A stretch of 64,000 bases of DNA from Candidatus Algichlamydia australiensis (GCA_033977065.1 JAXCHI010000003.1:32001-96000), one strand, 5' to 3'; shown: positions 14,326-49,160, counted from the stretch's first letter. Made by a program: numbers and translations. The notes: generated from the sequence alone by a model not told the origin.

Positions 14326-15202
14326 CTCTTCGCTCCTTTATAAACGAGCGGAGATGTTTCAGGCTGTAAGACGCTTTTTTGAGGAGCGTTCTGTTCTTGA
14401 GGTTGATGTTCCCTCTCTTGTGCGCGCTCCGATTGTCGATTTGCACATTGATCCGATGCGGGTTGGGTCTGAATTTTTGATCACTTCTCCTGAATCGGGC
14501 ATGAAACAACTTTTGGCTAAAGGTTCGGGCGATATTTATCAGATAGCCCATGTCTTCCGTGCAGGAGAAAAGGGTAAGCTTCACAATCCAGAATTCACGA
14601 TGGTAGAGTGGTACCGTGTCGGAATGGGATTTGAACCATTTATTGATGAGACGGTGCAATTCATTTCCCTTTTTGTTGGTCAAGCTCCGCGAGTTTTTTT
14701 CTCTTTCCAAGAGGCTTTTTTGCACTTTTTGCGTATCGATCCTTTTGAAGCAAAGGATGAGGAGCTACGCGCTTTAGCTGAGTTACCTGAAGATTGGGAC
14801 CGCGAGACGATTTTACACTACTTAATGGGTTTTGTTATTGAGCCAAAATTTGATCCTGAAATTTTTACTGTAGTTACGGATTTTCCTGAGAGTGAGGCAG
14901 CTCTTGCTAAGATTGAGAATGGCAGAGCTAAGCGTTTCGAGGTCTACTTCGGTGGGTTTGAGCTCGCTAATGGGTATGATGAGCTAGATGATGCAGCTGA
15001 GTTGCGCAGTCGTTTTGTAGAGGCTAATCGGAAGCGCGTGCAGCATGGGAAAGAGGTACTTCCTCTTGATGAAGAGTTATTGGCTGCAATGGAAAAGGGT
15101 TTCCCAGAGTGCTGCGGTGTGGCGGTTGGGTTTGACCGTCTGCTCATGCTAAAGCTAGGAGCAGATTCGATTGCTCACATCCAACCCTGCACAATGGGAT
15201 AG
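14306..15202 (+). CDS. epmA: EF-P lysine aminoacylase EpmA/GenX
   Basis: LITSPE, FRAGE..HNPEFTMVEWY, ELANGY, GVAVGFDRL; follows efp. Confidence 0.92.
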   Translation: MTHASRSSSLLYKRAEMFQAVRRFFEERSVLEVDVPSLVRAPIVDLHIDPMRVGSEFLITSPESGMKQLLAKGSGDIYQIAHVFRAGEKGKLHNPEFTMVEWYRVGMGFEPFIDETVQFISLFVGQAPRVFFSFQEAFLHFLRIDPFEAKDEELRALAELPEDWDRETILHYLMGFVIEPKFDPEIFTVVTDFPESEAALAKIENGRAKRFEVYFGGFELANGYDELDDAAELRSRFVEANRKRVQHGKEVLPLDEELLAAMEKGFPECCGVAVGFDRLLMLKLGADSIAHIQPCTMG

Positions 15203-15203
15203 C
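15174..15203 (-). repeat. Duplicate of the nadE 3' end (encodes YPIVQGWM-stop) overlapping the epmA end
   Basis: ctcacatccaaccctgcacaatgggatagc vs 15447-15476 ctcacatccacccttgcacaataggatagc; 3 differences, all synonymous in the nadE frame. Confidence 0.85.
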
Positions 15204-15310
15204 CCAATCCCGAGACTTTGACGTCCAACGATTTTACTAGTGATAAACCTTTATTAAAACTTTCTATATTCATATTTAAGTGATTTGAATTTAGTTGTTT
15301 AAAAGCCAAG

Positions 15311-15408
15311 AAAAAGTATCCGCTGGCTATAAATTCCTATATTCAGCGGATAAAACACAAAAACAAAAAGTATCCGCCAGGTATAAATTTCTATAGCTGG
15401 CGGATACT
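15311..15408. repeat. Two tandem REP-like hairpins, 54-bp period
   Basis: AAAAAGTATCCGC...GCGGATA at 15311 and 15365. Confidence 0.8.
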
Positions 15409-15447
15409 CAAGAAGGTTAAAAATACCGATTTACTTGGGCTGCCTAC

Positions 15448-17082
15448 TCACATCCACCCTTGCACAATAGGATAGCGCCGGCCCACTCCAAAGGATTTAC
15501 GTGTCACACGCAAGATTGGCGGACCTTGTCGTCGTTTGTACTCCGCGCGATGAATGCGTTGCACAAGGTTCATTACGGTTTCAAGCGGAATTTTATACTT
15601 ACTCGAGATTTCATCTAAAGAGAGATATTCTTCAACATAGCCTTGCAACACTGCATCAACAATGCCGTAATCTGGGAGGCTATCAAGATCTTTTTGGTCT
15701 GGTCGCAGTTCAGCACTCGGAGGACGGTCTATGATATTTTGAGGAATAATTTCTCCGTTGCGGTTGATGTAGCGACAAAGTTTGTAAACTTTTGTCTTGA
15801 TTACATCTCCAATCACGCCAAGCCCTCCGCACATATCTCCGTAGAGTGTGGAGTAACCTAGTGCTGTCTCACTCTTATTCCCTGTACTTAAGACTATGTG
15901 CCCATTTTTATTGGAGTAGGCCATGATGATGAGGCCTCGGATGCGCGCCTGCATATTTTCTTCGGTTACATCTGTGGGCTTATCACCAAAGTGTGGTTTG
16001 AGCAGATCCAAAAATGTAGTAAAGGGCTTTTCAATCGGGATCTCAATGGTCTCTACTCCCAGGTTTTTTGCTAAAGAGATGGAGTCTGTCACGCTCTCTT
16101 TGCTCGAATAGCGGGATGGCAGCATGATTCCCAATACGTTTTCAGGTCCTAAAGCGTCTTTTGCAATGCAAATTACAAGTGCTGAATCAATTCCTCCTGA
16201 GAGTCCCAAGCACGCTTTGGTAAATCCTTGTTTGTGGAAGTAGTCGCGCACTCCCATCACGAGGCTCTGATAAAGATCTTCTAACACATCATATTCGAAA
16301 GGACAGGTGCATGTTGGTGCATCAACGTCGATGATCATGACGTCTTCTTCGAATCCTTTTGCAAGCTGCCGCAATGTTCCATCAGCATTTACGCATACGC
16401 TATACCCATCAAAAAGAATTTGATCATTGCCCCCTACTTGGCAGCAGAGAATAACGGGACAGTTTAAGGTTTTAGCTGCCTTGGCGCAGACTTCTACACG
16501 TGTGTCAGGTTTTTGATACTGATAGGGCGAGGCTGAAAGGTTAAGAAGAAGGTCGATCCCCTCTTTTTTGAGCTCTTCAACTGGGTCGCGTTTGTACTGC
16601 GCGGGACCTGTTTTGCCTGCATGCTGCCAGATATCTTCACAGATAATAACGCCTACTCGCTTGCCGTTCACTTCGGTAATACAGAGCTCTTTTCCTGGGT
16701 CAAAGTAGCGTCTCTCAGTAAAAACGTCGTAGGTAGGTAAAAGCCACTTATCATAAAACCCTTTGAGTTTTCCATTGGAGATGATGGCGCAGCTATTGCA
16801 AAGTCCGTTGGTTCCATCGTTTGTATTGCGACGCACAAGACCTACAAAAACAGTGAGATTGTGAGAATTTTTTACAATTTTTTCTAGGTGCTCATACATG
16901 CTATCGATAAAGCTGTGGTGATAGAGCAAATCTTCTGGCATGTAGCCACAGATTGTCATCTCAGGAAAGATGATAATTTCTGATCCAGAGGTGCGTGCGC
17001 GATCCATATCACGCAAAACTTTTTCTGTGTTCTGATCAAGATCCCCAATTTTGAGGTTAAGTTGCGATACAAATATTTTCAC
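15448..17082 (-). CDS. nadE: Glutamine-dependent NAD+ synthetase
   Basis: Nitrilase domain (FPE, ICEDIW) plus synthetase domain (GLSGGIDS, TGNKSE, PPSAEL, EYKRRQ). Confidence 0.95.
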   Translation of the reverse strand: MKIFVSQLNLKIGDLDQNTEKVLRDMDRARTSGSEIIIFPEMTICGYMPEDLLYHHSFIDSMYEHLEKIVKNSHNLTVFVGLVRRNTNDGTNGLCNSCAIISNGKLKGFYDKWLLPTYDVFTERRYFDPGKELCITEVNGKRVGVIICEDIWQHAGKTGPAQYKRDPVEELKKEGIDLLLNLSASPYQYQKPDTRVEVCAKAAKTLNCPVILCCQVGGNDQILFDGYSVCVNADGTLRQLAKGFEEDVMIIDVDAPTCTCPFEYDVLEDLYQSLVMGVRDYFHKQGFTKACLGLSGGIDSALVICIAKDALGPENVLGIMLPSRYSSKESVTDSISLAKNLGVETIEIPIEKPFTTFLDLLKPHFGDKPTDVTEENMQARIRGLIIMAYSNKNGHIVLSTGNKSETALGYSTLYGDMCGGLGVIGDVIKTKVYKLCRYINRNGEIIPQNIIDRPPSAELRPDQKDLDSLPDYGIVDAVLQGYVEEYLSLDEISSKYKIPLETVMNLVQRIHRAEYKRRQGPPILRVTRKSFGVGRRYPIVQGWM

Positions 17083-17207
17083 GAGATTATTCCATTATTG
17101 TTGCTTATAAAGTTTTTCATGATTTTCTGTTCATTTTTTCTCAATTTTTGAGGTAAACTTTAAAAAGTTGGCCGAAAAAATTGGAAGCATAAGATAATGG
17201 TGTAGTC

Positions 17208-18470
17208 TCAAGATCCAAAGTCATCCAATACAATATTTTCTCTCTCAACTCCGTAGTTGTCGAGAAGTTTCATCACACTCTGATTATGCATGGGAGGACC
17301 GCAAACATAATAGAGGCAATTTTCCGGTTCATTCATTTTTTCTAACTGTCCTATCTCAAACGCCTTGAAGAGAAAACCTGTTTGCTCAGGATCGTCTACT
17401 GGCCAGCCGCCTGCTTTATCTTCATCTGTTGGCTCTGAAAGAACAAGACGGTAAGAGAAGTTCTCATGTTCTGCGTCGAGTGCTCGAAATTCCTCTTCGT
17501 AAATGTTTTCTTTGATGGAGCGCGCTCCATACCAGAGTGTGACTTTGCGCTTTGTCTTTTTGTTATGAAAAAGATCAAGAATATGACTACGCCCAAATGA
17601 TGATCCCGCTCCTCCTATAAGAAAGATCAGCTCTCTATCATCGTGTATCATATGCGATTCGCCAAAAGGACCGGATAAGCGTACTTCATCTCCCGGTTTG
17701 AGAGAAAATGTATAGGAGGAGCAAATTCCCCAAGGAACATTTTTTGCAGGCGGTGTTGCGATGCGAATATTAAATTTTAGATGCTCTTCGCCCGGGTAAG
17801 AGGCCATTGAGTAGGCTCGGATTACTTCTTCATCAAAGGATCCAAAATCAATTTTTGTATCAAAAAGCTGAAACTTCTCCCAATCAGCAAAGTACTTCTC
17901 TTCCATTGTCCCCTTCCACTCCGAGGTGTTGGTGACAAAAGGTGGCACATGAAACTGGAGGTAATCCCCTGGTTGGTAACTTTCGATCGCGTCTTTGGGA
18001 ATTTCGATGATCAGCTCTTTTATGAATGTGGCCACGTTTTGATTGGAGACAACTTTTCCTTTAAACTCCTTCAAGGTCAAAAGAGATTCTGGAATCTTGA
18101 GTTCCATGTCCTCTTTGACTTTGCATTGGCATGAGAGCCGCCACCCCTCTTTTAGCTGATGATAGCTAAAAGTGGCCTTATCTGTTTCTAAAATATCGTT
18201 ACTGCTGTTGACTATCTGAACTTTGCACTGTTTGCATGTCGCCTTGCCCCCACAAGGAGACGGCACTGCGATGCCTTGCGACAAGAGTGCTGAAAGCAGC
18301 GTCTGTCCTGCTGACACCTCTTTTGTAAGCTCCTCATCCTCATTAATCTTTAACTTGCAGGGTTTTGTCGATACAAGATAGCGTCTTACACCCAAGATCA
18401 TAAAGGAGAGTATGAGGCCAATGCCCACAAAACTGAGCGAACTAATAAGGAGTAGTATCAGGTCCATCAC
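17208..18470 (-). CDS. nqrF: Na+-translocating NADH:quinone reductase subunit F
   Basis: CGGKATCKQC 2Fe-2S motif, RAYSMASY, GGAG, YVCGPP, DDFG. Confidence 0.96.
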   Translation of the reverse strand: MMDLILLLISSLSFVGIGLILSFMILGVRRYLVSTKPCKLKINEDEELTKEVSAGQTLLSALLSQGIAVPSPCGGKATCKQCKVQIVNSSNDILETDKATFSYHQLKEGWRLSCQCKVKEDMELKIPESLLTLKEFKGKVVSNQNVATFIKELIIEIPKDAIESYQPGDYLQFHVPPFVTNTSEWKGTMEEKYFADWEKFQLFDTKIDFGSFDEEVIRAYSMASYPGEEHLKFNIRIATPPAKNVPWGICSSYTFSLKPGDEVRLSGPFGESHMIHDDRELIFLIGGAGSSFGRSHILDLFHNKKTKRKVTLWYGARSIKENIYEEEFRALDAEHENFSYRLVLSEPTDEDKAGGWPVDDPEQTGFLFKAFEIGQLEKMNEPENCLYYVCGPPMHNQSVMKLLDNYGVERENIVLDDFGS

Positions 18471-18670
18471 TCTCTAATAAAGCATTTGCTAGATAGAGAA
18501 CAACACACTATTTCGATTTAAATATTCATCATGGTAAATCATTGTGAAAAACAATTGCTTTTTTTCTAAACAGTATTGACGTTAAATCTTCCAACCTGGC
18601 AGAATCCTAAAGAAAAAGATTTCTTAACACAAATAGCAGGAAATCTTAATATACCAGGGGGGGGGGATTT

Positions 18671-20164
18671 ATGAGTGTTCAAATTAGAGCTTTTGGCCCA
18701 CAAGAAAGGGTCGATGTGTTGCGGACAGCTTTTCCAAAGTCTAGAGAATTGAGCCAGGGAGTCAGTGCAATCAACCTAGCCGACGACTGGCTTAGCAACC
18801 CCGACAAGTACGACCCTAACGATCACATACATGTTTGTATTGGTGAATCTTATACCGGTTGTATCTTGCAATCATTAATGCGAAGACCAGTAAAGCACTC
18901 TAGTTGCGGTAATAGATTTGAGCATGCTTTTTTAAAACGAGCTCTTGATACTGATCGCAGAAAATTATGCCCCATGTGTCGGACACCCATAACAAGCATG
19001 CCCGATGTTGATGTCCAACTCCAAGGAGAAATTGCTCAATTCTCTACAAAGCTCCTCAGAAGAGTGTATGCTTACATCGAAGCACTTGAAGAACAAAGAC
19101 AGGAAGAACGCCCTGAATGGCGAGCTGCACAACTCCAAATACAGCCTCTAAGGCTGAGAAGAGCTCGGGTAAACCCTCAAGCAGAGGCTATAGCAGCCTT
19201 GTATCGGGAAGTGATAGATGAGATTTTGGAAGAAAATCCCTTCCCAACAGAATTTGAAGAGAGAGATCTTAATAGTAAAATATTCGTTATTGATGACTTA
19301 AACCGAACAGACTGGGGCAAAATTCGCAAATTTTCTATTGCCGGCTTTGTAGGAGGAGCCGCTTTGGGCGGAGCAGCAGCCTGTTACTTTTATCCCCCTT
19401 CAACACCAAAATGTGCTGCAAAAGGAGCAGCTGTAGGCGCTATTGCGGGTGGTGCTGCGGGTGCTGGGTATGCAAAGCACTTAGACTACCAAAACAGACG
19501 ATCTCTAAGAAAAGAACATGCAAGACTATTAAACGAATTACTGAGTGGGGAGTTTCATAACATCCAATACAGCTTGAAACAAGAGCTTGAAACAAACAGA
19601 GGTCTAATCAGAAGGTTTATTACCGACAACCCGCAAGTTTTAAACCTTTTAATCGACGATTCTAAGCGAGACAGAAATAAAGAGTTGCAAGTTTTGTTTG
19701 CTGGCTTCCAAAAATATGTTGTTTCCTTGTTTAGCGGAGATACAGACATTGAAATACTTCCTAATTCACAATCTATAGACCAAAGAGTTCCAATAAGCCG
19801 CGAACAGATAGAAAATAATTTCGATATATTTCGTCTAAACACATCCCTTCTTATTATGTATGTTTATAAGCGATTTTTACTTTCTAAACTGGGTGTAAGA
19901 AATGAACTCGAGATAAACATAGCTGATATTGAACGTGAAACACAAGGTATTTCCAGCAGGTATCGTAGTAAAGTTGTCTCCTTAGGAAAAGTCCACTTTT
20001 GCAATCGTGTTCTTGCAAAAATCTCTAGCATATTTGTCAATCACTTTAAAGAGGAAGCACGCGAGCTCCAAGGGGAGGAGCGTGACCTTAAAAAAGGAAG
20101 AGTTAGCTTGTGGGAAAACTTCCTTGATAAAATCATTGATCGAAACCCAATTAACGGCTTTTAA
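18671..20164 (+). CDS. U-box/RING-like domain protein with glycine-zipper hydrophobic hairpin, putative effector E3 ligase
   Basis: CILQSLMRRPVKHSSCGNRFE...CPMCRTPI; GGAALGGAA...GAAVGAIAGGAAG. Confidence 0.7.
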   Translation: MSVQIRAFGPQERVDVLRTAFPKSRELSQGVSAINLADDWLSNPDKYDPNDHIHVCIGESYTGCILQSLMRRPVKHSSCGNRFEHAFLKRALDTDRRKLCPMCRTPITSMPDVDVQLQGEIAQFSTKLLRRVYAYIEALEEQRQEERPEWRAAQLQIQPLRLRRARVNPQAEAIAALYREVIDEILEENPFPTEFEERDLNSKIFVIDDLNRTDWGKIRKFSIAGFVGGAALGGAAACYFYPPSTPKCAAKGAAVGAIAGGAAGAGYAKHLDYQNRRSLRKEHARLLNELLSGEFHNIQYSLKQELETNRGLIRRFITDNPQVLNLLIDDSKRDRNKELQVLFAGFQKYVVSLFSGDTDIEILPNSQSIDQRVPISREQIENNFDIFRLNTSLLIMYVYKRFLLSKLGVRNELEINIADIERETQGISSRYRSKVVSLGKVHFCNRVLAKISSIFVNHFKEEARELQGEERDLKKGRVSLWENFLDKIIDRNPINGF

Positions 20165-20176
20165 AAGAGGTAAAGT

Positions 20177-21082
20177 ATGAATGCATCATTTAGCATAGCT
20201 CTGAATAGTTTTTTTGATTCGATAGCACCAACTGATTTCCATAGGTTGAATGAAGAGAATCGACAAATCGAAACCAGGGTCCTTAAACGGACCCCACCAA
20301 AAACAGCATGGCAGCTCCACGAAAAGGACATTACGCTTCTAGCGCGTGAGCTTCCCCTCTACCTTTTCCGGTTTTTTTTCTCCAGAGGCCTCGATCAGAA
20401 ACGCATCGATTTTGTTAGAGAGCACGCTTATCCTGTTGAGCATAACCAAACACGAAATGATAGGGGAAACAATACCACTTTGTATGGTAGATCAGTTGAG
20501 TCTTACTTTTTAGATACCAGGCACATCAATAATGACGACTATGACCCTCAAAAGATAAAAACTGCTATTGAAACTCTTTTCACACAGAATCCTTCTTTAT
20601 CTTTACATATTTCTGATGATGTATCCAAAGAAAACCTTCTTGTAATGCGGGTCTTTGAACGAAAGATGACTCCATGCATGAAAGATGATGTAGCAGGTAT
20701 AAAACCATTTACTCGCGAGCAAGAACGTTCTGTAGATATAGCTTGGACCACCGCTGTTGTTAACTATCCTAAAACCCTTGACGACTTACCTCCGGGCCCT
20801 GGAACGTCCGCACTTGGAGTGCACGTTGAAAGCGCAAAAACTTCCCTTGATGAGAAATCTTTAGCACATAAAAAAAGACTCACTGAAGTAAAAGAAGAAA
20901 TGCTCTCTGTTATTGATGATGTTATCGCTGGCAGAAAAGACCTCAGAGCCTTCACTTATGAGTCTTCCTATGAGTGGGCTTTTTGGAAAAGGCGCTCTGT
21001 CACTCAACTTTTTGCTTCCTCTTCTACTCTTGCCATTTCTGCTGCCATTTTTGTGTTACATAAGTTCATTTATCAAAGCTAG
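20177..21082 (+). CDS. Hypothetical protein with C-terminal hydrophobic anchor
   Basis: 301-aa ORF, GAGG RBS, 12 bp after the U-box gene. Confidence 0.7.
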   Translation: MNASFSIALNSFFDSIAPTDFHRLNEENRQIETRVLKRTPPKTAWQLHEKDITLLARELPLYLFRFFFSRGLDQKRIDFVREHAYPVEHNQTRNDRGNNTTLYGRSVESYFLDTRHINNDDYDPQKIKTAIETLFTQNPSLSLHISDDVSKENLLVMRVFERKMTPCMKDDVAGIKPFTREQERSVDIAWTTAVVNYPKTLDDLPPGPGTSALGVHVESAKTSLDEKSLAHKKRLTEVKEEMLSVIDDVIAGRKDLRAFTYESSYEWAFWKRRSVTQLFASSSTLAISAAIFVLHKFIYQS

Positions 21083-21111
21083 TTTTTCAAAAAAACTACA
21101 TCCACAAAACA

Positions 21112-21143
21112 AGAGCTTTAGCTAAAAGCTAAAGCTATTTTTA
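21112..21143 (+). terminator. Probable intrinsic terminator
   Basis: AGCTTTAGCT-AAA-AGCTAAAGCT followed by ATTTTTATT. Confidence 0.55.
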
Positions 21144-21176
21144 TTAAAAATAAGAAAATTGCTATTCTCGCGGGAT

Positions 21177-21503
21177 TTAGAACACAATTAAATATTTTTT
21201 TTTGACTGGATTACTCCAATCTAAAATATCCTTGTCAATATTGAAAATTTGTACTTTGCACTGTTTGCATGTCGCCTTGCCCCCACAAGGAGACGGCACT
21301 GCGATGCCTTGCGACAAGAGTGCTGAAAGCAGCGTCTGTCCTGCTGGCACCTCTTTTGTAAGCTCCTCATCCTCATTAATCTTTAATTTGCAGGGTTTTG
21401 TCGATACAAGATAGCGTCTTACACCCAAGATCATAAAGGAGAGTATGAGGCCAATGCCCACAAAACTAAGCGAACTAATAAGGAGCAGTGTCAGGTCCAT
21501 CAC
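21177..21503 (-). pseudogene. nqrF: Truncated duplicate of the nqrF 5' end (~95 homologous codons)
   Basis: 21253-21503 near-identical to 18220-18470 (offset 3033), then ~10 diverged codons, then unrelated sequence to a stop. Confidence 0.92.
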
Positions 21504-21555
21504 TTACTAATAAAACATTAACTAGTTAGTCGACAACTCTGATAGGATTATTTTC

Positions 21556-21645
21556 ACCGCTAAATTCAGCTTTCCGAATCTAGCGGGGAATTTTCTTCTT
21601 CCATTAAGTACCGCTAAATTCTGTTTTCCGAATCTAGCGGTACTT
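21556..21645. repeat. Two tandem REP-like hairpins, 54-bp period
   Basis: ACCGCTAAATTC.G.TTTCCGAATCTAGCGG at 21556 and 21610. Confidence 0.8.
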
Positions 21646-21679
21646 TTTTCAAAAGAAAGTAAGTGTATTTTTTAGTTGG

Positions 21680-21708
21680 TTGACAGGCTTCATAGGATAG
21701 GGTACACT
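21680..21708 (+). promoter_or_regulatory. Sigma66-type promoter of the transporter-htpG operon
   Basis: TTGACA-N17-TACACT. Confidence 0.65.
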
Positions 21709-21736
21709 TTTTCAAAGTAATCAAACTTAAACTACT

Positions 21737-23122: not shown

Positions 23123-23124
23123 TT

Positions 23125-24888: not shown

Positions 24889-24906
24889 TAATACTATTGA
24901 TAAGGA

Positions 24907-26094: not shown

Positions 26095-26172
26095 TAATCA
26101 ATAACTAAAATATTTGTTTAATAAATATCCGATATAATATAATTAATATTAGGTTAATAGAGAGTTAATAAA

Positions 26173-28655: not shown

Positions 28656-28709
28656 GCCTTGGATTATAGAGAAATCCCCTAGATTTTTCCAGGGGATTAA
28701 AAACTTTAT

Positions 28710-29160: not shown

Positions 29161-29168
29161 AGATTTGT

Positions 29169-29693
29169 TTATCTTTTAGTTTTTCTTCTTGTCGTTTTTC
29201 TTTTAGCAGCTGTTTTTCTTTTTGCTGGTGCTTTTTTCTTTGCAACTGTTTTTCTCTTTGCCGGCGCTTTTCTCTTAGCTGTTGTTTTCTTCTTAGCTGT
29301 GGTCTTTCTCTTCGCTGGTGCTTTTTTCTTCGCAGCTGTTTTTCTTTTTGTTGTTGTCTTCTTCTTAGCAGCAGTCTTTCTCTTCGCTGGTGCTTTTTTC
29401 TTTGCAACTGTTTTTCTCTTTGCCGGCGCTTTTCTCTTAGCTGTTGTCTTCTTAGCAGCTGTCTTTTTCTTCGCTGGCTTTTTCTTTGCTGCTACCTTGG
29501 TTTTCTTTAAAGAACCATTTTTTGCTGCAGCAACAGACTCTTTGCGGAAAGTCTTTGCAAGTTTTGCAAATTTGATGGTATTTGTGCGCATGCGCTGGCA
29601 AGCAGCTTTGTTACCGCAGCATCCTTTTGTCAAATCTTTTGCCATTTGATCGAGCATCTTGCCCATCTTTGCCATTGTATCTTTTAGTGCCAC
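29169..29693 (-). CDS. hctA: Histone H1-like protein Hc1 with extended Lys/Ala/Arg repeat tail
   Basis: (M)ALKDT...GNKAACQRMRTNTIKFAK...FRKES Hc1 N-domain; GTG start after GGAGGAG. Confidence 0.9.
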   Translation of the reverse strand: MALKDTMAKMGKMLDQMAKDLTKGCCGNKAACQRMRTNTIKFAKLAKTFRKESVAAAKNGSLKKTKVAAKKKPAKKKTAAKKTTAKRKAPAKRKTVAKKKAPAKRKTAAKKKTTTKRKTAAKKKAPAKRKTTAKKKTTAKRKAPAKRKTVAKKKAPAKRKTAAKRKTTRRKTKR

Positions 29694-33303: not shown

Positions 33304-33367
33304 AGCAAAAAAAACCGCTTAAGATTTCTCTTTAACGGCGAAGTAAAACTTGGCAACGACCTACTCT
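33304..33367 (-). repeat. Duplicate of the 5S rRNA 3' end and rRNA terminator
   Basis: Matches 33564-33629 (offset 262), including 32 identical nt CGGCGAAGTAAAACTTGGCAACGACCTACTCT. Confidence 0.9.
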
Positions 33368-33375
33368 TACGGCCC

Positions 33376-33526
33376 CAAAACATTGCAATTCCCACATCCC
33401 ACTTGTGGAGCTTACTCTTTCTTTTCATAATGCTTCTTAGCAATAGCCTGTGGCTATTCCTTTCGTCGCATTCTAAAAATCTAGAGCAAGCTGCACTTCC
33501 TGTAATGAGTAAATTGCAATGTTTTG
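33376..33526. mobile_element. ~150-bp element bounded by 15-bp perfect inverted repeats
   Basis: CAAAACATTGCAATT ... AATTGCAATGTTTTG. Confidence 0.5.
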
Positions 33527-33566
33527 CTACCTATACTCTTGTGCAAAAAATCAAAAGGAATTTAGC

Positions 33567-33601
33567 AAAAAAAAAGCCGCTAAAGATCTCTCTTTAGCGG
33601 C
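33567..33601 (-). terminator. rRNA operon terminator
   Basis: GCCGCTAAAGA-loop-TCTTTAGCGGC followed by a T9 run on the minus strand. Confidence 0.8.
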
Positions 33602-33610
33602 GAAGTAAAA

Positions 33611-33725
33611 CTTGGCAACGACCTACTCTCCCATACTCTCGTGCATAGTACCATCGGCGATGAAGGGCTTGACTACTGAGTTCGAAATGGAATCAGGTAT
33701 ACCCCCTTCTCTAATGTCACCAAGA
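33611..33725 (-). rRNA. rrf: 5S rRNA
   Basis: Canonical GATGGTACT...GGGAGAGTAGGTCGTTGCCAAG; ends approximate. Confidence 0.95.
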
Positions 33726-33834: not shown

Positions 33835-36773
<2,939 letters not shown>

Positions 36774-37087: not shown

Positions 37088-38654
<1,567 letters not shown>

Positions 38655-39142: not shown

Positions 39143-39534
39143 AGGAGTGCGAAACACCAGTATTGTTCAGGGATTCCTTTAGAAAGGATTGAATAAATGC
39201 TTTGCTAGCAGGCCAAGTTGAAAAATTTTAAAAGGGGTTATTTGTAGATCGCAAATGCCTAGTGCTCTGTAACAGAGTACTAGATACAGTTAGTTAGAAA
39301 TTGAAAATACCCTTTTCAAGGATTTCTCAACCGGGATATTGGTGAGTGAGTTATTCAGTGGCTCCTTAAAGAGATACTGAATAACTGCTCTTTTCAAAAA
39401 GGGATCAAAAAATGAGGACAAATTGGTTTTGGAGAACGGAGCTAACTCAACTATGAGTTAGTGAGTTCAAAAAACCGATTTGGACCAATTTTTGATCCCT
39501 TATTGAAAAGTCTGAGTTGTTCAGTATCTCCTTA
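39143..39534. mobile_element. Tandem cluster of long-hairpin MITE-like elements with GAGA/CC-ACTGAATAAC-type ends and a nested 25-bp CTAG element
   Basis: 39370-39531 folds along its whole length and is flanked by TAA/TTA; degenerate sister at ~39181-39365; CTAGTGCTCTGTAACAGAGTACTAG at 39259-39283. Confidence 0.75.
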
Positions 39535-40804: not shown

Positions 40805-40828
40805 GCCTTCATTTTATATGATTAAAAA

Positions 40829-41785: not shown

Positions 41786-41825
41786 CTTCTTTAATTCTAT
41801 ACCTTTTATCTAATAGAATAAAGGC

Positions 41826-43253
41826 ATGAGTATTCCTATTGCATTTGCCCGCGGGGACGGCATTGGCCCCGAAATTATGGAGGCGGTCCTTCACATCTTG
41901 AAGGAAGCTGGCATTCCTCTAGAGCTTCACGAAGTGGAGATTGGGGAAAAAGTTTATAATCGCGGTATCGCAACTGGCATGGCTCCTGAAACGTGGGATG
42001 TGCTGCGCAATACAAAAGCTTTTTTAAAAGCGCCTATCACGACTCCTCAAGGAGGAGGGTTTAAAAGTTTAAATGTTACCGTACGCACAACACTTGGTCT
42101 CTACGCCAATGTGCGCCCTTGCATTAGTTACTCCCCTTTTATTAAGACCAAACATCCCGATATGAATGTGGTCATTGTGCGAGAAAATGAGGAGGATCTC
42201 TATGCAGGCATTGAGTACCGCCAAACTCCCGAAATTTGCACTTCGATCAAATTAATTTCAGAACCCGGATCAGAAAAAATTGTCCGCTATGCATTTGAAT
42301 ATGCTCGGGCAAATGGTCGCAAAAAGGTGAGCTGCTTCACAAAAGATAACATTATGAAGCTCTCTGATGGCCTCTTCACTCGTGTATTCCTTGAGGTAGC
42401 CAAAGAGTATCCCGATATTGAACATGAGCACTGGATTGTTGATATTGGTGCAGCTAAATTGGCCGATACTCCTGAAAATTTTGATGTTGTTGTTCTTCCC
42501 AATCTCTACGGAGATATCCTCTCTGATGTTGCTGCGCAAATCAGCGGCTCTGTTGGGCTTGCTGGCTCTGCAAATATTGGAGATCATGGCGCTATGTTTG
42601 AAGCAATTCACGGATCTGCTCCCCGCCGAGCGGGCCAAAACATGGCCAACCCTTCTGGTCTTCTTTTTGGCTCTCTGCTCATGTTGCAACATCTTGGCCT
42701 AGGAGAGATGGCCGAAAATATTCACAACGCATGGCTTAAAACAGTTGAAGAGGGCATCCACACTTACGATATTTTTGTGGAAGGAACAAGCAAAGAAAAA
42801 GTGGGAACAAAGGAATTTGCTGAGGCAATCGTAAAAAATCTTGGCATGAGACCGGAACAACTTAAGTGCGCTGCTTACTCAAAAGAGAAAAAAGGTTTTA
42901 AAAAACCCCATTTAAAAACGATCGAAACTAAGCGCGAACTCGTCGGTGTTGATGTCTATTTCTATGCAAAAACTACCCTGTCTGACTTTGTGGAGAAAAT
43001 GAAAGATGAGGGACATGGCAATTTAAAAGTGCAAATGATGACGAATCGCGGAGCCAGAATTTACCCGCACGGACAACCCGAAACTTTTTGTACAGATCAG
43101 TGGCGCTGTCGTTTTACAACTGGTGGCAGCTGCACCCAAAAAGAGATCAGCGATCTTTATGCAAAGCTTAGTGATGCGGGCCATGACATCATTAAAACAG
43201 AAAATCTCTACAGTTTTGACGGGAGCTTAAGCTACTCGCACGCCGAAAAATAG
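41826..43253 (+). CDS. icd: NADP-dependent isocitrate dehydrogenase
   Basis: GDGIGPE, KAPITTPQGGGFKSLNV, NLYGDILSD, FEAIHGSAP. Confidence 0.95.
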   Translation: MSIPIAFARGDGIGPEIMEAVLHILKEAGIPLELHEVEIGEKVYNRGIATGMAPETWDVLRNTKAFLKAPITTPQGGGFKSLNVTVRTTLGLYANVRPCISYSPFIKTKHPDMNVVIVRENEEDLYAGIEYRQTPEICTSIKLISEPGSEKIVRYAFEYARANGRKKVSCFTKDNIMKLSDGLFTRVFLEVAKEYPDIEHEHWIVDIGAAKLADTPENFDVVVLPNLYGDILSDVAAQISGSVGLAGSANIGDHGAMFEAIHGSAPRRAGQNMANPSGLLFGSLLMLQHLGLGEMAENIHNAWLKTVEEGIHTYDIFVEGTSKEKVGTKEFAEAIVKNLGMRPEQLKCAAYSKEKKGFKKPHLKTIETKRELVGVDVYFYAKTTLSDFVEKMKDEGHGNLKVQMMTNRGARIYPHGQPETFCTDQWRCRFTTGGSCTQKEISDLYAKLSDAGHDIIKTENLYSFDGSLSYSHAEK

Positions 43254-43277
43254 CAACCTCCCAGGAACCACAAACGC

Positions 43278-46200
43278 TCAACAAGACACATCCTTTTTTA
43301 CTTTCGTTTGCGATTCATGCTCAGGAGGCCACTTAGAGATGTCTTCAGGAACATAAGATTTTCCATCCCTAAATTTCCAACATTTTTCGGATGGTGTTGC
43401 ATATAACAAACGATGAAGTTGGACGTGACTCTTAGCAGCTACGCGATCCCCAAATGTATAGTACCCAATTTCATTAGGAAATTCATCGGAATATTCATGA
43501 GGATACATAAAAATTTTAGAACCGCTTTTACCTGGATATGCAACAGGCATTCTAGCATCAAATGACTCCATTCCTGTAGGTACTAAAATTTCTTCTACAA
43601 ACTTTAAAGCATCACTCTCAATTTTGTATAGAGCTCTTTCAAGGAAACTCTTTCCTTTGTCTTTGGATTTTGCTTTTTTAACTTTAGCTTTAGAGTAAAG
43701 TCGATTTGCTACAGCCTCCCTCTTTGCATCCACTCTATACATAGCGGTATTTTTTGCACGCTTAATAAAATCAACTGATTTGTCAATATTGGAGAGCTCT
43801 TGCCTAGAAGCAAACTCTTTAGAAAAATGCATCAAATTCATAAAAAAGAGTTCACACTGATATTCAATAAAATTCATAAGACCAAATTCATCCTCGTACT
43901 TTACTGTTGAGAGCTTTAAAGCCAAGTCACTGGCTACTTGAAGTGCAAATAGTTCCATGGTAAACATTTCCGGTAAAACAGTGAGACACTCCATTTTTTC
44001 TTGCAACTCGGTTATACAAATTTGCAAACCGTTAAAATTTCTCCTAAGTTCTTTTTTAGATTTTTCTTCATAATAACTACCTACTGCTTCACGAATTAAC
44101 CCCATCATAGTATTGATAGGAAAAGTTACAAGAAAAGCAGGTCCAGGAAAACCCATAACAGCTAATCCATCATCACTGGCAATGCTAACACCCCACGCTA
44201 AAATCCCCAATGCTGTGCTGATCTTTTGCGACGCTTCATCTCTGGTTAGCTCTACGAACTCACTTTTCCCAGCATAGAGTCCAATAATTACTGCCTGCAA
44301 GCGGTCACGAAATTCTCTAAATATTTGTATTCCATTTCTAATCGAGGGATTTTCATCATTCTTATATTCAATGTCAGGTAGTATTTCTACTTTTTTCAAT
44401 ATCTCTTGACGCTTCACAAGATATTTTCCAAACGATGACAAAGCAGAAATGCAATCCACTGAAATGCCCAGCTTTTTCACTTGTTCAAAAAGCTCTGTAT
44501 TTTCTTCCATCAGCTTATTGTTGCTCTCGATTGCCTTACTAATTTTTGCTTGTTCATTTTTAAGGTCTTGGATAGCTACAGATGCTTCTACGCTAAAAGC
44601 ATTCAAGGCGTCTGCAAACTTCGTCTCCCAGCTCTTAAGATCATCTTTTTGATGAGAGTCGAATTCCTTTTTTAATTTTTCATACTTATTTAATCCTTCT
44701 AAAACCTCACCCTCTAACAAATTAATTTTATTTTTGAGATTGGCTATTTGTGTTACAACACTGGCTATTTGTGCGGAGGTAAACTTTTGCCTAGAGCGAG
44801 TCTTTAACATTTTCCCAATCCAATCCGCCAAATCCTGTCTTTTATTAAAAATCGCATAATCAAGTGGTGTGCGCCCAGTTGAATCTGGTATCTGAAGAAT
44901 CGATGGGTTTGCAACTAAAGAATCAAGTACATCAACCGGAACATGAGTTTGTTTTAATGCGTAATGTAGAGCTGTATCTCTAATTATATCGAATCCACTT
45001 TTCCCTCTATCCCAATTAGGAAACTCTGTATCTATCTCGAACTTCCCTTCTAGATTTGCAAAAGGTGTCATTCCCGAACTAATAAATTGGGTAACTTCGC
45101 CACAAGAATTATCCGCAATAGCTCGCCTTAAATGGACTAAGCTTTGGTAATTATTAGCAATATGGCCTTGAATTTCTGAGAGAGGGCTTTTTATCAAAGA
45201 GCAGTTTTTCTTCTTAAATGCCCCCCAGTCTAAGGCTGTATTAGTCTTAGCTCTAAAAAAAGCCAACACTTTTGTTTCTGCTAAAGATTCGGCAAAAAAG
45301 GGAGGCATTAAATTTTCACCAAGGTCGAGCCATACAATTGTACGCTGATAATTAAATCTTGTTGGCTGGATCCCCTCACCGATTACTTCCATTTGCTTTG
45401 AGTTGAGACTATTTCCTGCCAAACTTACAATTGACAATCGATTTCTTTCTAAAAAGAGGGCTTTAATAAACTCGATGTTTTTTTTAGACGAATTTCCTCC
45501 TAGTTTGTTATTTGCTAGGTTAATTGCATAAAGAGCTTGCTTTTGATTGAATAAGTTTTTTATTTTATTTGTGTTGTATTTGCAATCTTTAAAATTAATC
45601 TCACAGCCAGCAAGATCAAGAGAGCAAACTACACTATTAGTTTTTAGTGCCTTAAGCAATTTATAAACTTTTTCAGCCCCTAGCTTTACGCCTCTAAAAC
45701 TCAACTTAGTAAGCCAAGAAAAGGGGTCAAAAGGGACATTATCAAGCTTCTTTAAAAAAATCTCAAAACCACTGTTACTCTTTTCTGTTTTAAGTTCTTC
45801 GATCTCTTGTTCCAGCTTCTTTGACCTTTTTTTTACCTCCTTCAATGCACGCCCTACATTTTGAAGTTCATTCCTTTGTGATCGAATTTTCCCATCTTTA
45901 CATCTTTCAAAACCGTACGTTCTACGAGGGTCCAAAATATACTTACGCCTTGGTCGGGAAGTAAATTTTTTGGCTGGAATGTCTTTACCTTTATGCCTTT
46001 TAAGATCGTGCACTCGAGGTTCCCAACGATGTTTAGGCCTTCGATCGCAAACAAATTTTTTGATCGGAGTCTGCTTATGTTCAAGTACTTCAAATTTACG
46101 CTTACGTTTATCTCTTGAAAGTAAACTCATTCTTCTACGAAGAGCATCTTTAATAAAAATTTCTTCTTTTTGAAGACGGGTTTCTTTATTTCGAAGACGA

Positions 46201-46337
46201 ATTTCTCCATTTTGAAGACATTTCAGAGATTCTAATTTGCTTTTTAAATCCTTAGCGGGATTCGAACTCTCCAAAAACTCTTGCATATCTGCGAGTGGGG
46301 CTCCCGCCATTCTAGAGGGAACTAGTCGTAATGTCAT
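43278..46337 (-). CDS. Large eukaryote-like LRR (RI-type) plus ankyrin plus coiled-coil protein, putative effector
   Basis: LDLAGCEI, INLANNKL, VSLAGNSL, LDLGENLM; DTALHYA and GRTPLDYA ankyrin motifs. Confidence 0.8.
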   Translation of the reverse strand: MTLRLVPSRMAGAPLADMQEFLESSNPAKDLKSKLESLKCLQNGEIRLRNKETRLQKEEIFIKDALRRRMSLLSRDKRKRKFEVLEHKQTPIKKFVCDRRPKHRWEPRVHDLKRHKGKDIPAKKFTSRPRRKYILDPRRTYGFERCKDGKIRSQRNELQNVGRALKEVKKRSKKLEQEIEELKTEKSNSGFEIFLKKLDNVPFDPFSWLTKLSFRGVKLGAEKVYKLLKALKTNSVVCSLDLAGCEINFKDCKYNTNKIKNLFNQKQALYAINLANNKLGGNSSKKNIEFIKALFLERNRLSIVSLAGNSLNSKQMEVIGEGIQPTRFNYQRTIVWLDLGENLMPPFFAESLAETKVLAFFRAKTNTALDWGAFKKKNCSLIKSPLSEIQGHIANNYQSLVHLRRAIADNSCGEVTQFISSGMTPFANLEGKFEIDTEFPNWDRGKSGFDIIRDTALHYALKQTHVPVDVLDSLVANPSILQIPDSTGRTPLDYAIFNKRQDLADWIGKMLKTRSRQKFTSAQIASVVTQIANLKNKINLLEGEVLEGLNKYEKLKKEFDSHQKDDLKSWETKFADALNAFSVEASVAIQDLKNEQAKISKAIESNNKLMEENTELFEQVKKLGISVDCISALSSFGKYLVKRQEILKKVEILPDIEYKNDENPSIRNGIQIFREFRDRLQAVIIGLYAGKSEFVELTRDEASQKISTALGILAWGVSIASDDGLAVMGFPGPAFLVTFPINTMMGLIREAVGSYYEEKSKKELRRNFNGLQICITELQEKMECLTVLPEMFTMELFALQVASDLALKLSTVKYEDEFGLMNFIEYQCELFFMNLMHFSKEFASRQELSNIDKSVDFIKRAKNTAMYRVDAKREAVANRLYSKAKVKKAKSKDKGKSFLERALYKIESDALKFVEEILVPTGMESFDARMPVAYPGKSGSKIFMYPHEYSDEFPNEIGYYTFGDRVAAKSHVQLHRLLYATPSEKCWKFRDGKSYVPEDISKWPPEHESQTKVKKDVSC

Positions 46338-46360
46338 TTTCTACCTCTTTTCGTGCAGCA

Positions 46361-46389
46361 ATTGTAGTATGGAAACACACAACCTTCAA
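46361..46389 (-). promoter_or_regulatory. Promoter for the LRR-ankyrin gene
   Basis: TTGAAG-N17-TACAAT, then AGAGGT RBS. Confidence 0.5.
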
Positions 46390-46484
46390 GCACTTTTTTA
46401 AAGCACATAAAAATCTGACGAAAATTAACAGCTCTCCTTCTGCATACAGCTGCACCAAAATAAGCTGTTACATGTCAGCAGCTT

Positions 46485-46684
46485 CTATTTTTCGATAGCA
46501 CTCTTTAGTGTACCAAGAAAGTCATCCCCCTACATACCATCAGTAATGCGATGGTCAAAAGTTAGCGAGACATAGATGAATAAGGCGCTCCAAATGAATC
46601 ATCATCATGCGCAACAACTTCTTTCTCAATTGCCTCTATACCAATGATGGCAACTTCTGGGTGGTGACTGATAGAAATGCCAAA
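46485..46684 (-). pseudogene. Degraded duplicate of the 3' end of the E2 acyltransferase gene
   Basis: Aligns to 48021-48221 (HHPEVAIIG...LTFDHRI.DGM) with many third-position changes and indels; followed by hairpin AAGCTGCTGAC..TAACAGCTT-ATTTT. Confidence 0.85.
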
Positions 46685-46712
46685 GCTACTCATAATAATA
46701 GTGCTTTCTTTA

Positions 46713-47011
46713 ACTCAAAAGAGAGAGAGAAAAGTTTAAAAAGCTCCCTTTAAAACCGATCAAAACTAAGCACGAACTCATCGGTGTTGATATCTATTTC
46801 TATGGAAAAACTACCCTGCCTGACTTTGTAGAGAAAATGAAAGATGACAGATCAGTGGCGCTGTCGTTTTACAACTGGTGGCAGCTGCACCCAAAAAGAG
46901 ATCAGTGATCTTTATGCAAAGCTTTGCGATGCAGGCCACGATATTATCAAAACAGAAAATCTTTATAGCTTTGATGGAAACTTAAGTTACTCCCAAGCAG
47001 ATAAATTATAA
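46713..47011 (+). pseudogene. icd: Duplicate 3' end of icd (icdC-like) with ~83-bp internal deletion
   Basis: Aligns to 42877-43253; 59-nt identical core; ends FDGNLSYSQADKL* vs FDGSLSYSHAEK*. Confidence 0.92.
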
Positions 47012-47082
47012 AAAAATATACTTCTAAAATAACCAAGAAATAGCTATCCTTGAAAAGAAATTAATTAAAAAAGGCGGCTAAA

Positions 47083-47982
47083 ATGGGAGCTTGGGGACCG
47101 GGTTTATATAGTAATGATTTTGCTTGTGATTTAAAGAGCACGATTCGAGCAGTATCGCGTCTTCCTTACGAACCTAAGAAAATTTTAGAACTTTTGTGCG
47201 AAATGGAGGAAGATACAGCAAGTAATCCTCTCAATGAAGATTATACGACTTTTTGGCTTGTTGTTGCGGACCAATTTTACAAAAAAGGAATTTATCTTAA
47301 GCATCTAAATGAGAAAGCCATCAAGATTATCGATAAAAAACAAGATTTACATATGTTAAGTGATCTTGGGATGGAAGATCGTGATTTAAAAAAACGCGAA
47401 AAAACACTTCAAAAGCTCAAATCTCTGCTTTGTAACCAAGCCAATGAACCTTCAAAAAAAAGAAAAACTTTAAAGGCTCCTCTGCCTTTTATCATGGAAG
47501 TCGGGGACTGTTTTTCCTTTCCCACTTCAAATGGTTTAGCCTTGAACCCTTACGTTTCCAAAAAAGATGCAGAAAGGTATTACAATGCATGTAAGTGGAA
47601 GCAAAATGGCTATGGTCTTCTGGTTGTTTGTGAGAGAGGAAGAGTTTTAGACTACCTTACTTGGTACCGCGTGCTCGTTATGGACCACTCCCCTGAAAAA
47701 AAGCCTTCTTTTAGCAAAGAACTTCTCATTGAAAATAAATGGTCTATTTGTGAACCGGGAGTGTTTACGAATGCTATGGTAAAAAATTGTAGCTTCGAAA
47801 AATTAGGTAATATTCAATTTAAAGAGGAAAAGTTGGATCAAATTTTTCCGAACCGCAAAAATCCTTATTGGAAGGTGCTAGATAATATCGGCATGGGTTT
47901 TTGTTCTTCAGTGCCAAACGATTGCGAGTTAGACAAAAATGCACAAGAGAGCCCCTGCCCTGGAACTTCTTTATTTGAGTAA
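47083..47982 (+). CDS. Hypothetical protein with MGAWG N-terminus (DUF4259-like, possibly immunity-type)
   Basis: MGAWGPGLYSNDFACD start motif; 299 aa. Confidence 0.65.
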   Translation: MGAWGPGLYSNDFACDLKSTIRAVSRLPYEPKKILELLCEMEEDTASNPLNEDYTTFWLVVADQFYKKGIYLKHLNEKAIKIIDKKQDLHMLSDLGMEDRDLKKREKTLQKLKSLLCNQANEPSKKRKTLKAPLPFIMEVGDCFSFPTSNGLALNPYVSKKDAERYYNACKWKQNGYGLLVVCERGRVLDYLTWYRVLVMDHSPEKKPSFSKELLIENKWSICEPGVFTNAMVKNCSFEKLGNIQFKEEKLDQIFPNRKNPYWKVLDNIGMGFCSSVPNDCELDKNAQESPCPGTSLFE

Positions 47983-48020
47983 GATAGCACTGAAAAACAA
48001 CTAAATTTTCTTAAGTAGCT

Positions 48021-49160
48021 TTATTTTTCAAGCATAGTTTTTAGTGAGCCAAGAAAGTCGCAGCCGTACATACCATCAATGATACGATGATCAAAGGTGA
48101 GTGAAATGTGAATCACAGAGCGTACGCCAAATGAGTCATCTTCATTCGCTACCACTTTTTTCTCTATCGCTCCCATTCCAATGATTGCGACTTCAGGGTG
48201 ATGAATAATAGGAATGCCAATTTTCACTCCTGACATGCCAAAATTGGTCATGGTAATGGTACTTCCTTGTACTTCATCAGGTTTAAGAGTTTGACTGCGC
48301 GCTTTTGCTGCAAGGTCTGCCAACTTTTGAGCTACTTCGGGATGAGAAAGTTTGTCGATTTGCGGAATTACAGGAACAAGTATTCCCTCTTTTACACTAA
48401 CTGCAATACCGAGATTGATATGGCGTTTCAAGACGATATGATCGTGATCGACTGAGGCGTTGAGAAGGGGAAATTTTGTTATGGCTTGGCTAATTGCATG
48501 GGCAACATAACTTGTAATGGTGAGTTTACAGCCATGCTCTTTTTGAAAGCTCTCTTTGTTTGCTGCAATGCTGTTTTTGATATTTGTAATATCAATTTCT
48601 GCAACGAGGGTGGCGTGCGGCGCTTGATAGAAAGATTTGACCATGCTCTCAGCAATCGCTTTGCGCATGCCACTCATTTTCACTCTCTCCTCGTGGTCGG
48701 AAGCTGGCGTTGAAGAGCGTTTTTTTAGATAGTTTTCTATGTCTTTTTTGCTTACGCGTCCGCCTGCTCCTGTTGCAGGAATTTTTTTCAGTTCATCAAG
48801 AGGTATCCCCGCTTCACTTGCAATGCGGATCACGGCCGGTGAGAGGTAGTGCGTCATCGACTCTTGAGTTGGTGCTGGCTCTTCTTGGGGAACCTCTTCT
48901 TTGACTGTGCTCTCTTCTGCCTTGGTACCTGTTTCAATATGGCAGAGCAACGCTCCTACCTCGAGATCATCATCAGGTTTTGCAAAAATTTTTCTGATTA
49001 CTCCCGATACAGGAGAGGGTATCTCGCTATTAACTTTGTCTGTTGAGACTTCTAAAAGTGGCTCATCAAGATCAACTCTTTCACCCTCCTGCTTAAACCA
49101 CTGCACAATTTTTGCGCTTAAGATGCTCTCGCCGAGCTTTGGGAGCCGTACTTCTTCCAT
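48021..49160 (-). CDS. 2-oxoacid dehydrogenase E2 (dihydrolipoamide acyltransferase)
   Basis: Lipoyl STDKV, E3-binding GAGGRVSKKD, catalytic DHRIIDG. Confidence 0.93.
   Translation of the reverse strand: MEEVRLPKLGESILSAKIVQWFKQEGERVDLDEPLLEVSTDKVNSEIPSPVSGVIRKIFAKPDDDLEVGALLCHIETGTKAEESTVKEEVPQEEPAPTQESMTHYLSPAVIRIASEAGIPLDELKKIPATGAGGRVSKKDIENYLKKRSSTPASDHEERVKMSGMRKAIAESMVKSFYQAPHATLVAEIDITNIKNSIAANKESFQKEHGCKLTITSYVAHAISQAITKFPLLNASVDHDHIVLKRHINLGIAVSVKEGILVPVIPQIDKLSHPEVAQKLADLAAKARSQTLKPDEVQGSTITMTNFGMSGVKIGIPIIHHPEVAIIGMGAIEKKVVANEDDSFGVRSVIHISLTFDHRIIDGMYGCDFLGSLKTMLEK

Follow-up and report, generated by a model that had tools for sequence, protein, structure and literature searches.

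Partial copies of housekeeping gene ends flank accessory DNA in Candidatus Algichlamydia australiensis and may mark insertions with long target duplication

The DNA considered here is a window of 64,000 nt on contig C3 of Candidatus Algichlamydia australiensis (genome G000, GCA_033977065.1; window G000:C3:32001-96000, JAXCHI010000003.1), a metagenome-assembled genome (MAG) described as 1,799,045 bp in seven contigs (PMC11317633); positions given without a contig are those of the window. Five housekeeping gene ends in it, namely the 3' ends of nadE, icd and E2, the 5' end of nqrF and the 3' end of the 5S rRNA gene with its terminator, are each accompanied by a second, partial copy, always in direct orientation (genes named by Pfam, the 5S rRNA by Rfam). 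All five are real; in BLAST comparison of the genome with itself four pairs have E values from 3e-17 to 2e-127, whereas the nadE pair is too short for such a search. The DNA between the copies is unique in the genome, unlike a dispersed repeat such as an insertion sequence or a miniature inverted-repeat transposable element (MITE), and an Rfam scan of the window inserts gave no match. Among 55 ORFs of 80 aa or more in the window Pfam detected no integrase or transposase family; PF00589 has no match in the window, and its two genes in the genome both lie far from the duplicated ends. The five same-orientation copies and the absence of an integrase or transposase gene from the window, both reported in an initial annotation, are thus borne out. 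We consider it somewhat probable that these structures were left by accessory DNA entering conserved gene ends repeatedly and in an enzyme-unspecific way, that is, by insertion with long target duplication (ILTD).

Duplicated gene ends in the window

At the icd/E2 locus the order is icd, cargo A, an E2 fragment, 16 nt, an icd fragment, cargo B and E2. The resident icd gene (41826-43253, + strand) contributes its 3' end (42865-43251) to the repeat. Beyond it lies cargo A (43278-46337, - strand; interval GC 0.368), which encodes an orphan protein of 1019 aa, followed by a dead copy of the E2 3' end (46477-46683, - strand) with one stop and one frameshift, 74% identical (E 8e-25) to the end of the resident 2-oxoacid dehydrogenase acyltransferase E2 (48014-48220, - strand; gene 48021-49160). 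A novel joint of 16 nt, J (46684-46699), connects this fragment to a dead, mosaic copy of the icd 3' end (46700-47006, + strand), which carries small indels and an 83-nt deletion and has lost its stop; its alignments to the resident end have E values of 7e-38 and 8e-50. Cargo B (47083-47982, + strand) is an orphan ORF of 299 aa, orf299, with no Pfam family, and self-comparison found no detectable similarity between the two cargos. Joint J is covered without a single difference in two runs, X1 (contig of 3756 nt, 43121-46876) and X2 (contig of 1827 nt, 44943-46769), at depths of 12.2 and 1212 compared with 11.3-13.4 and 1399-1695 in the flanks. X1 is possibly the source library and both runs come from one study, so that this is read-level support and not an independent isolate. 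The short contigs break at a 59-nt stretch common to both icd copies, and for this reason the long-range order rests on the original assembly. The idea that the identical cores of the repeats arose in polishing was dropped, as in X1 the depth over the 59-mer common to both copies is about 1.5-fold that of the flanks (18.5 versus 11-13). Contigs aligned to 41800-49200 contain no cargo-free or circular joints, a result that is uninformative either way since contigs lose rare variants.

In related genomes the same interval is differently filled. The genes icd and E2 are convergent and about 30 nt apart in the confamilial comparison genome (G002); the kdsD-icd / E2-gltP synteny is conserved in three further families, whose gap is occupied by unrelated genes over 1.4, 2.5 and 5.2 kb; and yet another gene stands beside E2 in G001, the sole congeneric genome compared (about 78% nucleotide identity, 76% complete, fragmented assembly). 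None of these genomes has gene-end fragments at the locus. Because relatives hold either no insert or unrelated cargo between icd and E2, the gap appears to be a recurrent landing site. A G001 contig (G001:C176) ends 176 nt past icd and another (G001:C77) starts some 70 nt away from the 3' end of recD, both being scar sites in G000; since these contig ends coincide with scar positions, similar repeats may break the G001 assembly.

The nqrF gene (17208-18470, - strand) has the Fer2/FAD/NAD reductase architecture in Pfam. Its first 284 nt together with 69 nt upstream form repeat R1 (18187-18539, - strand), and a partial copy of the 5' end with upstream DNA, repeat R2 (21220-21565, - strand), lies beyond an insert of 2680 nt (18540-21219, + strand; GC 0.401) and contributes to a 108-aa ORF (21177-21503). 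The insert encodes an orphan RING/U-box-like protein of 497 aa (18671-20164) and an orphan ORF of 301 aa (orf301, 20177-21082). As the initial annotation had stated, the core of the pair is near-identical (about 98-99%) and both edges are diverged (about 70%; E 2e-127). SNF, nqrF and nadE are contiguous in G001, with a gap of about 60 nt between SNF and nqrF, and neither the U-box/orf301 insert nor a second nqrF end is present there. The upstream part of R2 is closer than that of R1 to the native nqrF-SNF spacer of G001, codons 84-95 of R1 match the G001 protein, and hence in both copies the cargo-proximal edge is the diverged one and the cargo-distal edge looks native. Such a pattern would fit an intermediate, circular or ends-in, in which recipient sequence served as the template for the core.

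The two large cargo proteins of the window are orphans, and their description in the initial annotation needs correction: the U-box match of the 497-aa protein (18.2 bits) and the ankyrin match of the 1019-aa protein (23.9 bits) are below the Pfam cut-offs of 21.4 and 27.3, and the leucine-rich repeats (LRR) that had been claimed for the latter find no Pfam family at E<=5. Atlas feature hits place the 1019-aa and 497-aa proteins with Ank/LRR and RING/U-box clusters (0.86-0.92), as leads only. In a large protein collection each of the two matches only itself at E<=1e-5, by a word-based search restricted to near lengths that is no proof of absence.

The nadE and 5S cases are smaller. The resident nadE 3' end (15447-15502, - strand; gene 15448-17082) is copied over about 51 nt at 15174-15224 (- strand), where the solid part is 28 nt (15177-15204, identical at 25/28 positions to 15448-15475) and similarity is weaker outside it; by a hand estimate about 1e-3 such core matches would be expected by chance in the window. 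On the + strand the first 28 nt of this upstream copy are the last 9 codons and stop of an epmA-like class II tRNA-synthetase paralogue (14264-15202, + strand; Pfam), and the three differences fall at third positions in both reading frames. In related genomes epmA and nadE overlap by 16 nt (G009) or abut (G012). A 222-nt insertion (15225-15446) thus seems to have parted two tail-to-tail genes while duplicating their shared end, both copies having been coding since. Because both are coding, the differences are uninformative on whether the copies were under selection before meeting, and the argument from synonymous nadE changes made in the initial annotation fails. The insert is AT-rich (0.337 over 15205-15447), yielded 0 sites in a promoter/terminator consensus scan and contains two 45-nt hairpin modules (15308-15352 and 15362-15406). 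A MITE origin was considered for it and dropped, as the insert is unique in the genome. The last ~20 nt of the 5S rRNA gene (33610-33724) and its hairpin terminator (resident end 33564-33629, - strand) recur at 33304-33367 (- strand; 92% identity, E 3e-17), across a unique insert of 196 nt (33368-33563). The nadE and 5S cases share the topology of the other scars, and a foreign allele is unnecessary to explain them.

Further observations concern the surroundings of these scars and the remainder of the window. Two unrelated hairpin modules, of 45 nt and 31 nt, are each paired at an equal spacing of 54 nt (15308-15406 and 21556-21640), and both pairs stand at scars, one within the nadE insert and the other bordering the nqrF fragment on its outer side. 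The EpmA tail is wholly different among G000, G001 and G009. The nadE-nqrF spacer (17083-17207) holds an element of about 60-80 nt, found also on three G001 contigs and in three more G000 copies (C3:304974, C2:19503 and C4:256156; 91-94%). Elsewhere in the window are a 772-aa RHS-repeat protein with internal repeat families (2392-4710), neighbouring paralogous ORFs of 240 aa without a Pfam family (9881-10606 and 11041-11763; 300 nt at 72%), and a Hc1 histone-like gene whose lysine/alanine-rich tail is encoded by an 18-nt tandem repeat of 12 copies (29162-29480). A truncated ORF of the DUF1016/YhcG PD-(D/E)XK nuclease type lies at the window end (63162-63569), and another at L040:4937-5368, beside the nqrA scar and next to a DDE transposase. 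The motif CTGTAACAGAAA occurs at the right edge of the EamA repeat (G000:C4:186215) and in a 39-nt repeat close to the end of the window (63724/63889).

Genome-wide census and codon-position differences

The genome-wide search that had been suggested for partial gene duplicates recovered many. Self-comparison of G000 gave 80 local, non-tandem direct repeat pairs of low copy number (segments with no more than 3 self-hits genome-wide), from which we curated about 20 gene-end scars, nadE and 5S not counted, by requiring that one copy touch the end of an ORF of at least about 130 aa and the other lie in a spacer or short ORF. The same automatic criterion applied to 400-kb samples gave 9, 6 and 3 scars in G000 compared with 2 in G009 and 1 in G019, just two comparison genomes, in which the repeats are also shorter (44-78 nt). 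A second interlocked stack has the order EamA, 177-aa ORF, NDH2 fragment, EamA fragment, 894-aa ankyrin protein and NDH2, with an imperfect 9-nt microhomology at the joint; its two cargos, the 177-aa ORF and the ankyrin protein, are dissimilar, and EamA and NDH2 are about 15 nt apart in G002 and separated by a different, 283-aa ORF in G001. The 4-kb insert at sdhB is missing in G001.

Over all loci the repeats are 28-464 nt long and 74-94% identical in a mosaic fashion, the joints fall at arbitrary coding positions, and no common motif or core was seen, judging by eye only, at the ends of 20 pairs. Because the repeats differ in length and end points and have neither a common core nor an integrase nearby, the insertions appear not to be site-specific. 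Inserts measure 0.2-4.5 kb, and their GC content of 0.33-0.40 is below the chromosome's 0.423 in 20/20 cases. According to Pfam the cargo includes three clear ankyrin proteins, Fic, HigB/HigA-like and HepT/MNT pairs, GNAT, a ricin-lectin-like protein and many proteins with no Pfam family; no mobility gene was found within the inserts, among 110 ORFs at the 19 other loci. Two scars do have transposase-like genes close by. At nqrA a DDE transposase stands 1.4 kb away, and at pdhE1 the 3' fragment is directly adjoined by a PDDEXK_2 (YhgA/Rpn-like 'transposase') gene (G000:C2:93536-94456, L033), which is one of four in the genome and is a lead only. A HepT/MNT pair (G000:C2:56398-57214, L050) is flanked by a 75-nt repeat (97%) that on reading its sequence is tRNA-gene-like. 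The candidate at C3:147-153 kb is a plain tandem gene duplication that copied the 5' end of the next gene. As to effectors, 4/15 of the frames over the Ank_2 cut-off lie within inserts that make up 1.8% of the genome (Poisson p ~2e-4, post hoc); the link to effector acquisition suggested in the initial annotation is accordingly a modest enrichment only.

Differences between the copies are not random over the codon: for the 20 pairs they number 106/76/315 at positions 1/2/3 of the working gene (315 of 497 at third positions), and along the aligned copies third-position changes come in runs, separated by long stretches without any difference, a mosaic that has the look of recombination between diverged alleles. 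With G001 as outgroup the changes could be polarised for 7/20 pairs (EamA, pgsA, sdhB, recD, nqrA, icd and E2); an orthologue for an eighth, MptE, was sought in G001 and not found. Changes unique to the resident ends are distributed 11/4/66 and those unique to the fragments 36/25/61. The third-position share of the fragments (61/122) is lower than that of the resident ends (Fisher p=7e-6) and higher than one third (p=1e-4), with an individually significant excess for EamA (10/14), pgsA (8/9) and sdhB (10/17) and none for recD (12/27), nqrA (5/11), icd (7/21) and E2 (9/23). Divergence that is mosaic and rich in third-position changes suggests that many of the fragments evolved within working genes, as parts of alleles since diverged. 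By a simple two-phase hand calculation, about two thirds of the separate history of the fragments would have passed inside working genes and the rest in decay.

The icd pair combines both phases. In the proximal zone (codons 349-394) the fragment-unique changes are 7/5/0 and the resident-unique changes 1/1/2; the core (codons 423-441) is identical, with 0/0/0 in either copy; and the last 34 codons (442-475) have 1/0/7 in the fragment and 0/0/8 in the resident gene. This indicates that the proximal zone has decayed, neutral change here seeming to be biased to positions 1 and 2, and that the last 34 codons were under purifying selection on both lineages. As neutral decay in this genome seems to fall preferentially on positions 1 and 2 (12/12 in the proximal zone), the third-position test would be conservative. 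The description of the icd differences as largely synonymous therefore holds for the last 34 codons (15/19 synonymous, 17/19 at third positions) but not overall, where 18 are synonymous and 18 non-synonymous. Likewise the claim that both versions had been under selection before they met stands for the icd 3' edge (7/8 at third positions) and several pairs genome-wide, but fails for nadE, and the E2 fragment and icd as a whole look neutral.

Origin of the duplicated gene ends

On the ILTD interpretation, the best account of each event combines a single homeologous exchange with a single illegitimate joint. DNA of a diverged chlamydial relative, sharing the conserved flanking gene and carrying other DNA beside it, would enter the cell. 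A ComEC-family gene is present in G000, and ComEC has been reported to be required for DNA uptake in Chlamydia trachomatis (PMC6686042). One end of the incoming DNA would pair with the resident gene end, as topology and mosaics suggest, and undergo homeologous exchange, and the other would form an illegitimate joint, upstream of the exchange by a few tens to hundreds of bases, either directly, by homology-facilitated illegitimate recombination (HFIR) or template switching, or after closure of a circle (Campbell-type). The product would be what is seen: a whole resident gene, with a partial second copy of its end beyond the insert, and, where conserved neighbours are convergent (icd/E2, EamA/NDH2), two intergenic 'alleles' stacked head to tail. 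The orphaned fragment would then decay while patch-wise gene conversion from the working copy leaves identical cores between diverged edges. Duplications would be what is seen because the only survivors in a compact genome would be events that spare both neighbours. For icd the pattern fits a homologous exchange near codon 441 and an illegitimate joint back at codon ~347, with the distal allelic edge running on into cargo A and the diverged E2 fragment; HFIR with duplication in place of deletion would give this arrangement. Allele stacking as proposed in the initial annotation is thus retained in its stacked topology at icd/E2 and EamA/NDH2, its diverged alleles and its lack of an integrase, but not in the single crossover of a Campbell circle. 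A circle is one possible route, for which the identical cores of the repeats would call for gene conversion or gap repair in addition; HFIR and template switching give the same topology and suit icd better.

Three other explanations compete with ILTD. That the alleles of two co-occurring strains were set in tandem by an assembler or in polishing is hardly credible, although the MAG is described as a metaFlye assembly of about 10x long reads polished with short reads (PMC11317633) and, the short contigs breaking at the 59-nt identical core, the long-range order at icd/E2 is without independent confirmation. Joint J is the sole sequence that an assembler would have had to invent, and it is spanned in two runs at flank-like depth; the lesions of the fragments (a deletion, a frameshift and a stop) would not be expected in the allele of a living strain; and the same architecture recurs at about 20 loci. 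Because of the spanned joint and these lesions, the icd/E2 arrangement should be no assembly artefact. Very unlikely, too, are site-specific elements that enter gene ends, supply a replacement end and later lose their integrase. The model for these is icd of E. coli, into which phage 21 also integrates and for which, as regards e14, Hill et al. 1989 is reportedly the reference. There the insert provides a replacement 3' end, so that a whole icd runs into the element and the displaced native end, icdC, is a 3' pseudogene beyond it with mainly conservative changes, a layout that ours mimics; e14, however, has a site-specific recombinase, a defined att site and SOS-induced excision (PMC13626634). 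The tRNA-fragment-like repeat at HepT/MNT also recalls such elements, tRNA genes being a classic integrase target. In contrast, no integrase, transposase or phage gene was found in the window inserts or in the inserts scanned genome-wide, the two PF00589 genes are distant, the repeat ends have no common core, and the icd insert includes part of E2, the chromosomal gene next to it, pointing to a chromosomal donor with the same synteny.

In-situ segmental (tandem) duplication over gene ends, followed by differential gene loss, decay and gene conversion with no foreign DNA, deserves more weight, though we still think it unlikely. In layout, icd/E2 and EamA/NDH2 match tandem-duplication joints exactly, as novel joints of two gene fragments that subsequently decay and undergo conversion, and the C3:147-153 kb locus is a true tandem gene duplication that includes the next gene's 5' end. 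Polarised changes in the window fragments are neutral-looking (E2 6/8/9; icd proximal zone 7/5/0), and because those of E2 are, an old in-situ duplication may account for that fragment. Yet the interior units differ, 43278-46337 being dissimilar to 47083-47982, the cargo is wholly absent from relatives, and a fragment dead on arrival should not gain mostly third-position changes of the kind found at EamA, pgsA, sdhB and the icd edge and in the pooled set, which point to a history of purifying selection in several fragments.

For ILTD itself several points count against our preference. The two window fragments with polarised changes, icd and E2, are neutral-like overall. The census relied on a crude ORF caller and a partly manual choice in which paralogue pairs and intragenic repeats were dropped, and one candidate proved to be the tandem duplication just mentioned. 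Recombination across ~20-25% divergence is inefficient; low GC is also usual for orphan genes and spacers; and the identical cores may reflect either later gene conversion or a stretch identical at birth, so that a second process is required. Neither a donor nor a single-allele sister genome was found among phylum genomes, the protein collection or a metagenome scan: orf299 had one weak match (E 9e-6) besides itself in 400 scored genomes of the phylum, and the scan with icd returned 39 loci (best identity 75%, convergent E2 in 1/39) with no sister allele and no icd/E2 fragments in the gap. The comparison of sister genomes called for in the initial annotation thus produced relatives with no insert or other cargo, but no genome with either allele alone.

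Relation to known systems and biological meaning

For ILTD, Nobusato et al. 2000 is reportedly cited by Furuta, Abe & Kobayashi 2010. The latter describe it for the restriction-modification units of Helicobacter pylori and of further bacteria, most of them competent, as an insert of <20 kb without a mobility gene between direct repeats of >30 bp that correspond to a single target copy in insert-free relatives; the repeats often lie over gene 3' ends, and the mechanism is given as unknown (PMC2853133). The scars in G000 agree in having direct repeats of >30 bp with a single copy in insert-free relatives at nqrF and sdhB (G001) and at icd/E2 and EamA/NDH2 (G002), the loci covered by this comparison, outside which nadE and 5S stand; their inserts are likewise below 20 kb and free of mobility genes, and the repeats are not dispersed. 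They differ in the nadE core repeat of just 28 nt with weak similarity to ~51 nt, in a cargo of orphan, ankyrin, RING/U-box-like, Fic and toxin-antitoxin genes instead of restriction-modification units, and in their number, with ~20 loci and two interlocked double stacks in one 1.8-Mb genome. Their repeats are also 74-94% identical, mosaic and synonymous-biased, whereas the tabulated cases are 94-100% identical (43/46 to 417/423) (PMC2853133); the lower identity may reflect age or foreign alleles.

HFIR in natural transformation was reportedly described by de Vries & Wackernagel 2002, Prudhomme et al. 2002 and Meier & Wackernagel 2003. It would resemble the present case in its one homologous anchor and one illegitimate joint at the level of microhomology, with foreign DNA beside a conserved gene, and icd has the identical proximal stretch and diverged distal edge that it predicts. 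Its experimental products, however, are reported usually to delete recipient DNA instead of duplicating it, and at nqrF the divergence of both repeat edges is a better fit to a circular or ends-in intermediate. HFIR has also been proposed for orphan-module stacking in T6SS (type VI secretion system) effector-immunity arrays of Vibrio cholerae, along with Rhs and contact-dependent inhibition (CDI) systems (Kirchberger et al. 2017, PMC5361080). There, as here, an import anchored in a conserved gene part displaces the old allele downstream, and 3' fragments and linked genes become stacked with no integrase; but in those loci the conserved anchor and the variable region are pieces of one toxin gene, and selection for immunity accounts for retention (PMC5361080), whereas in G000 housekeeping genes serve as anchors and what varies is whole intergenic genes. 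The present case is new in how densely the scars occur in one small genome, in the evidence tracing the orphaned ends to functional alleles that had diverged, in its double stacks that interlock and in the type of cargo.

A wider extrapolation is attractive and, in our view, doubtful. In this Simkaniaceae-like symbiont lineage homeologous 'allele stacking' might be the main integrase-free route by which genes for host interaction (ankyrin, RING/U-box, Fic) and toxin-antitoxin pairs are gained. Repeat-cargo-repeat units might also loop out when their repeats recombine and then enter another chlamydia at its copy of the conserved gene, in a cassette exchange among co-infecting chlamydiae that needs no machinery of its own. 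Environmental chlamydiae have many lineage-specific eukaryote-like genes, the acquisition of which is puzzling since integrases and phages are scarce. This genome offers about 20 datable insertion scars of one type, concrete places at which to study a poorly understood insertion with long target duplication. The fragments are not always inert: they yield gene-like short ORFs (108 aa at nqrF, 122 aa at sdhB, 115 aa at EamA) and can alter a neighbour's C-terminus, as at epmA. Several of the scars would retain a piece of a diverged, once-functional housekeeping allele, and such pieces would be direct sequence evidence of DNA exchange between well-separated chlamydial lineages inside the host.

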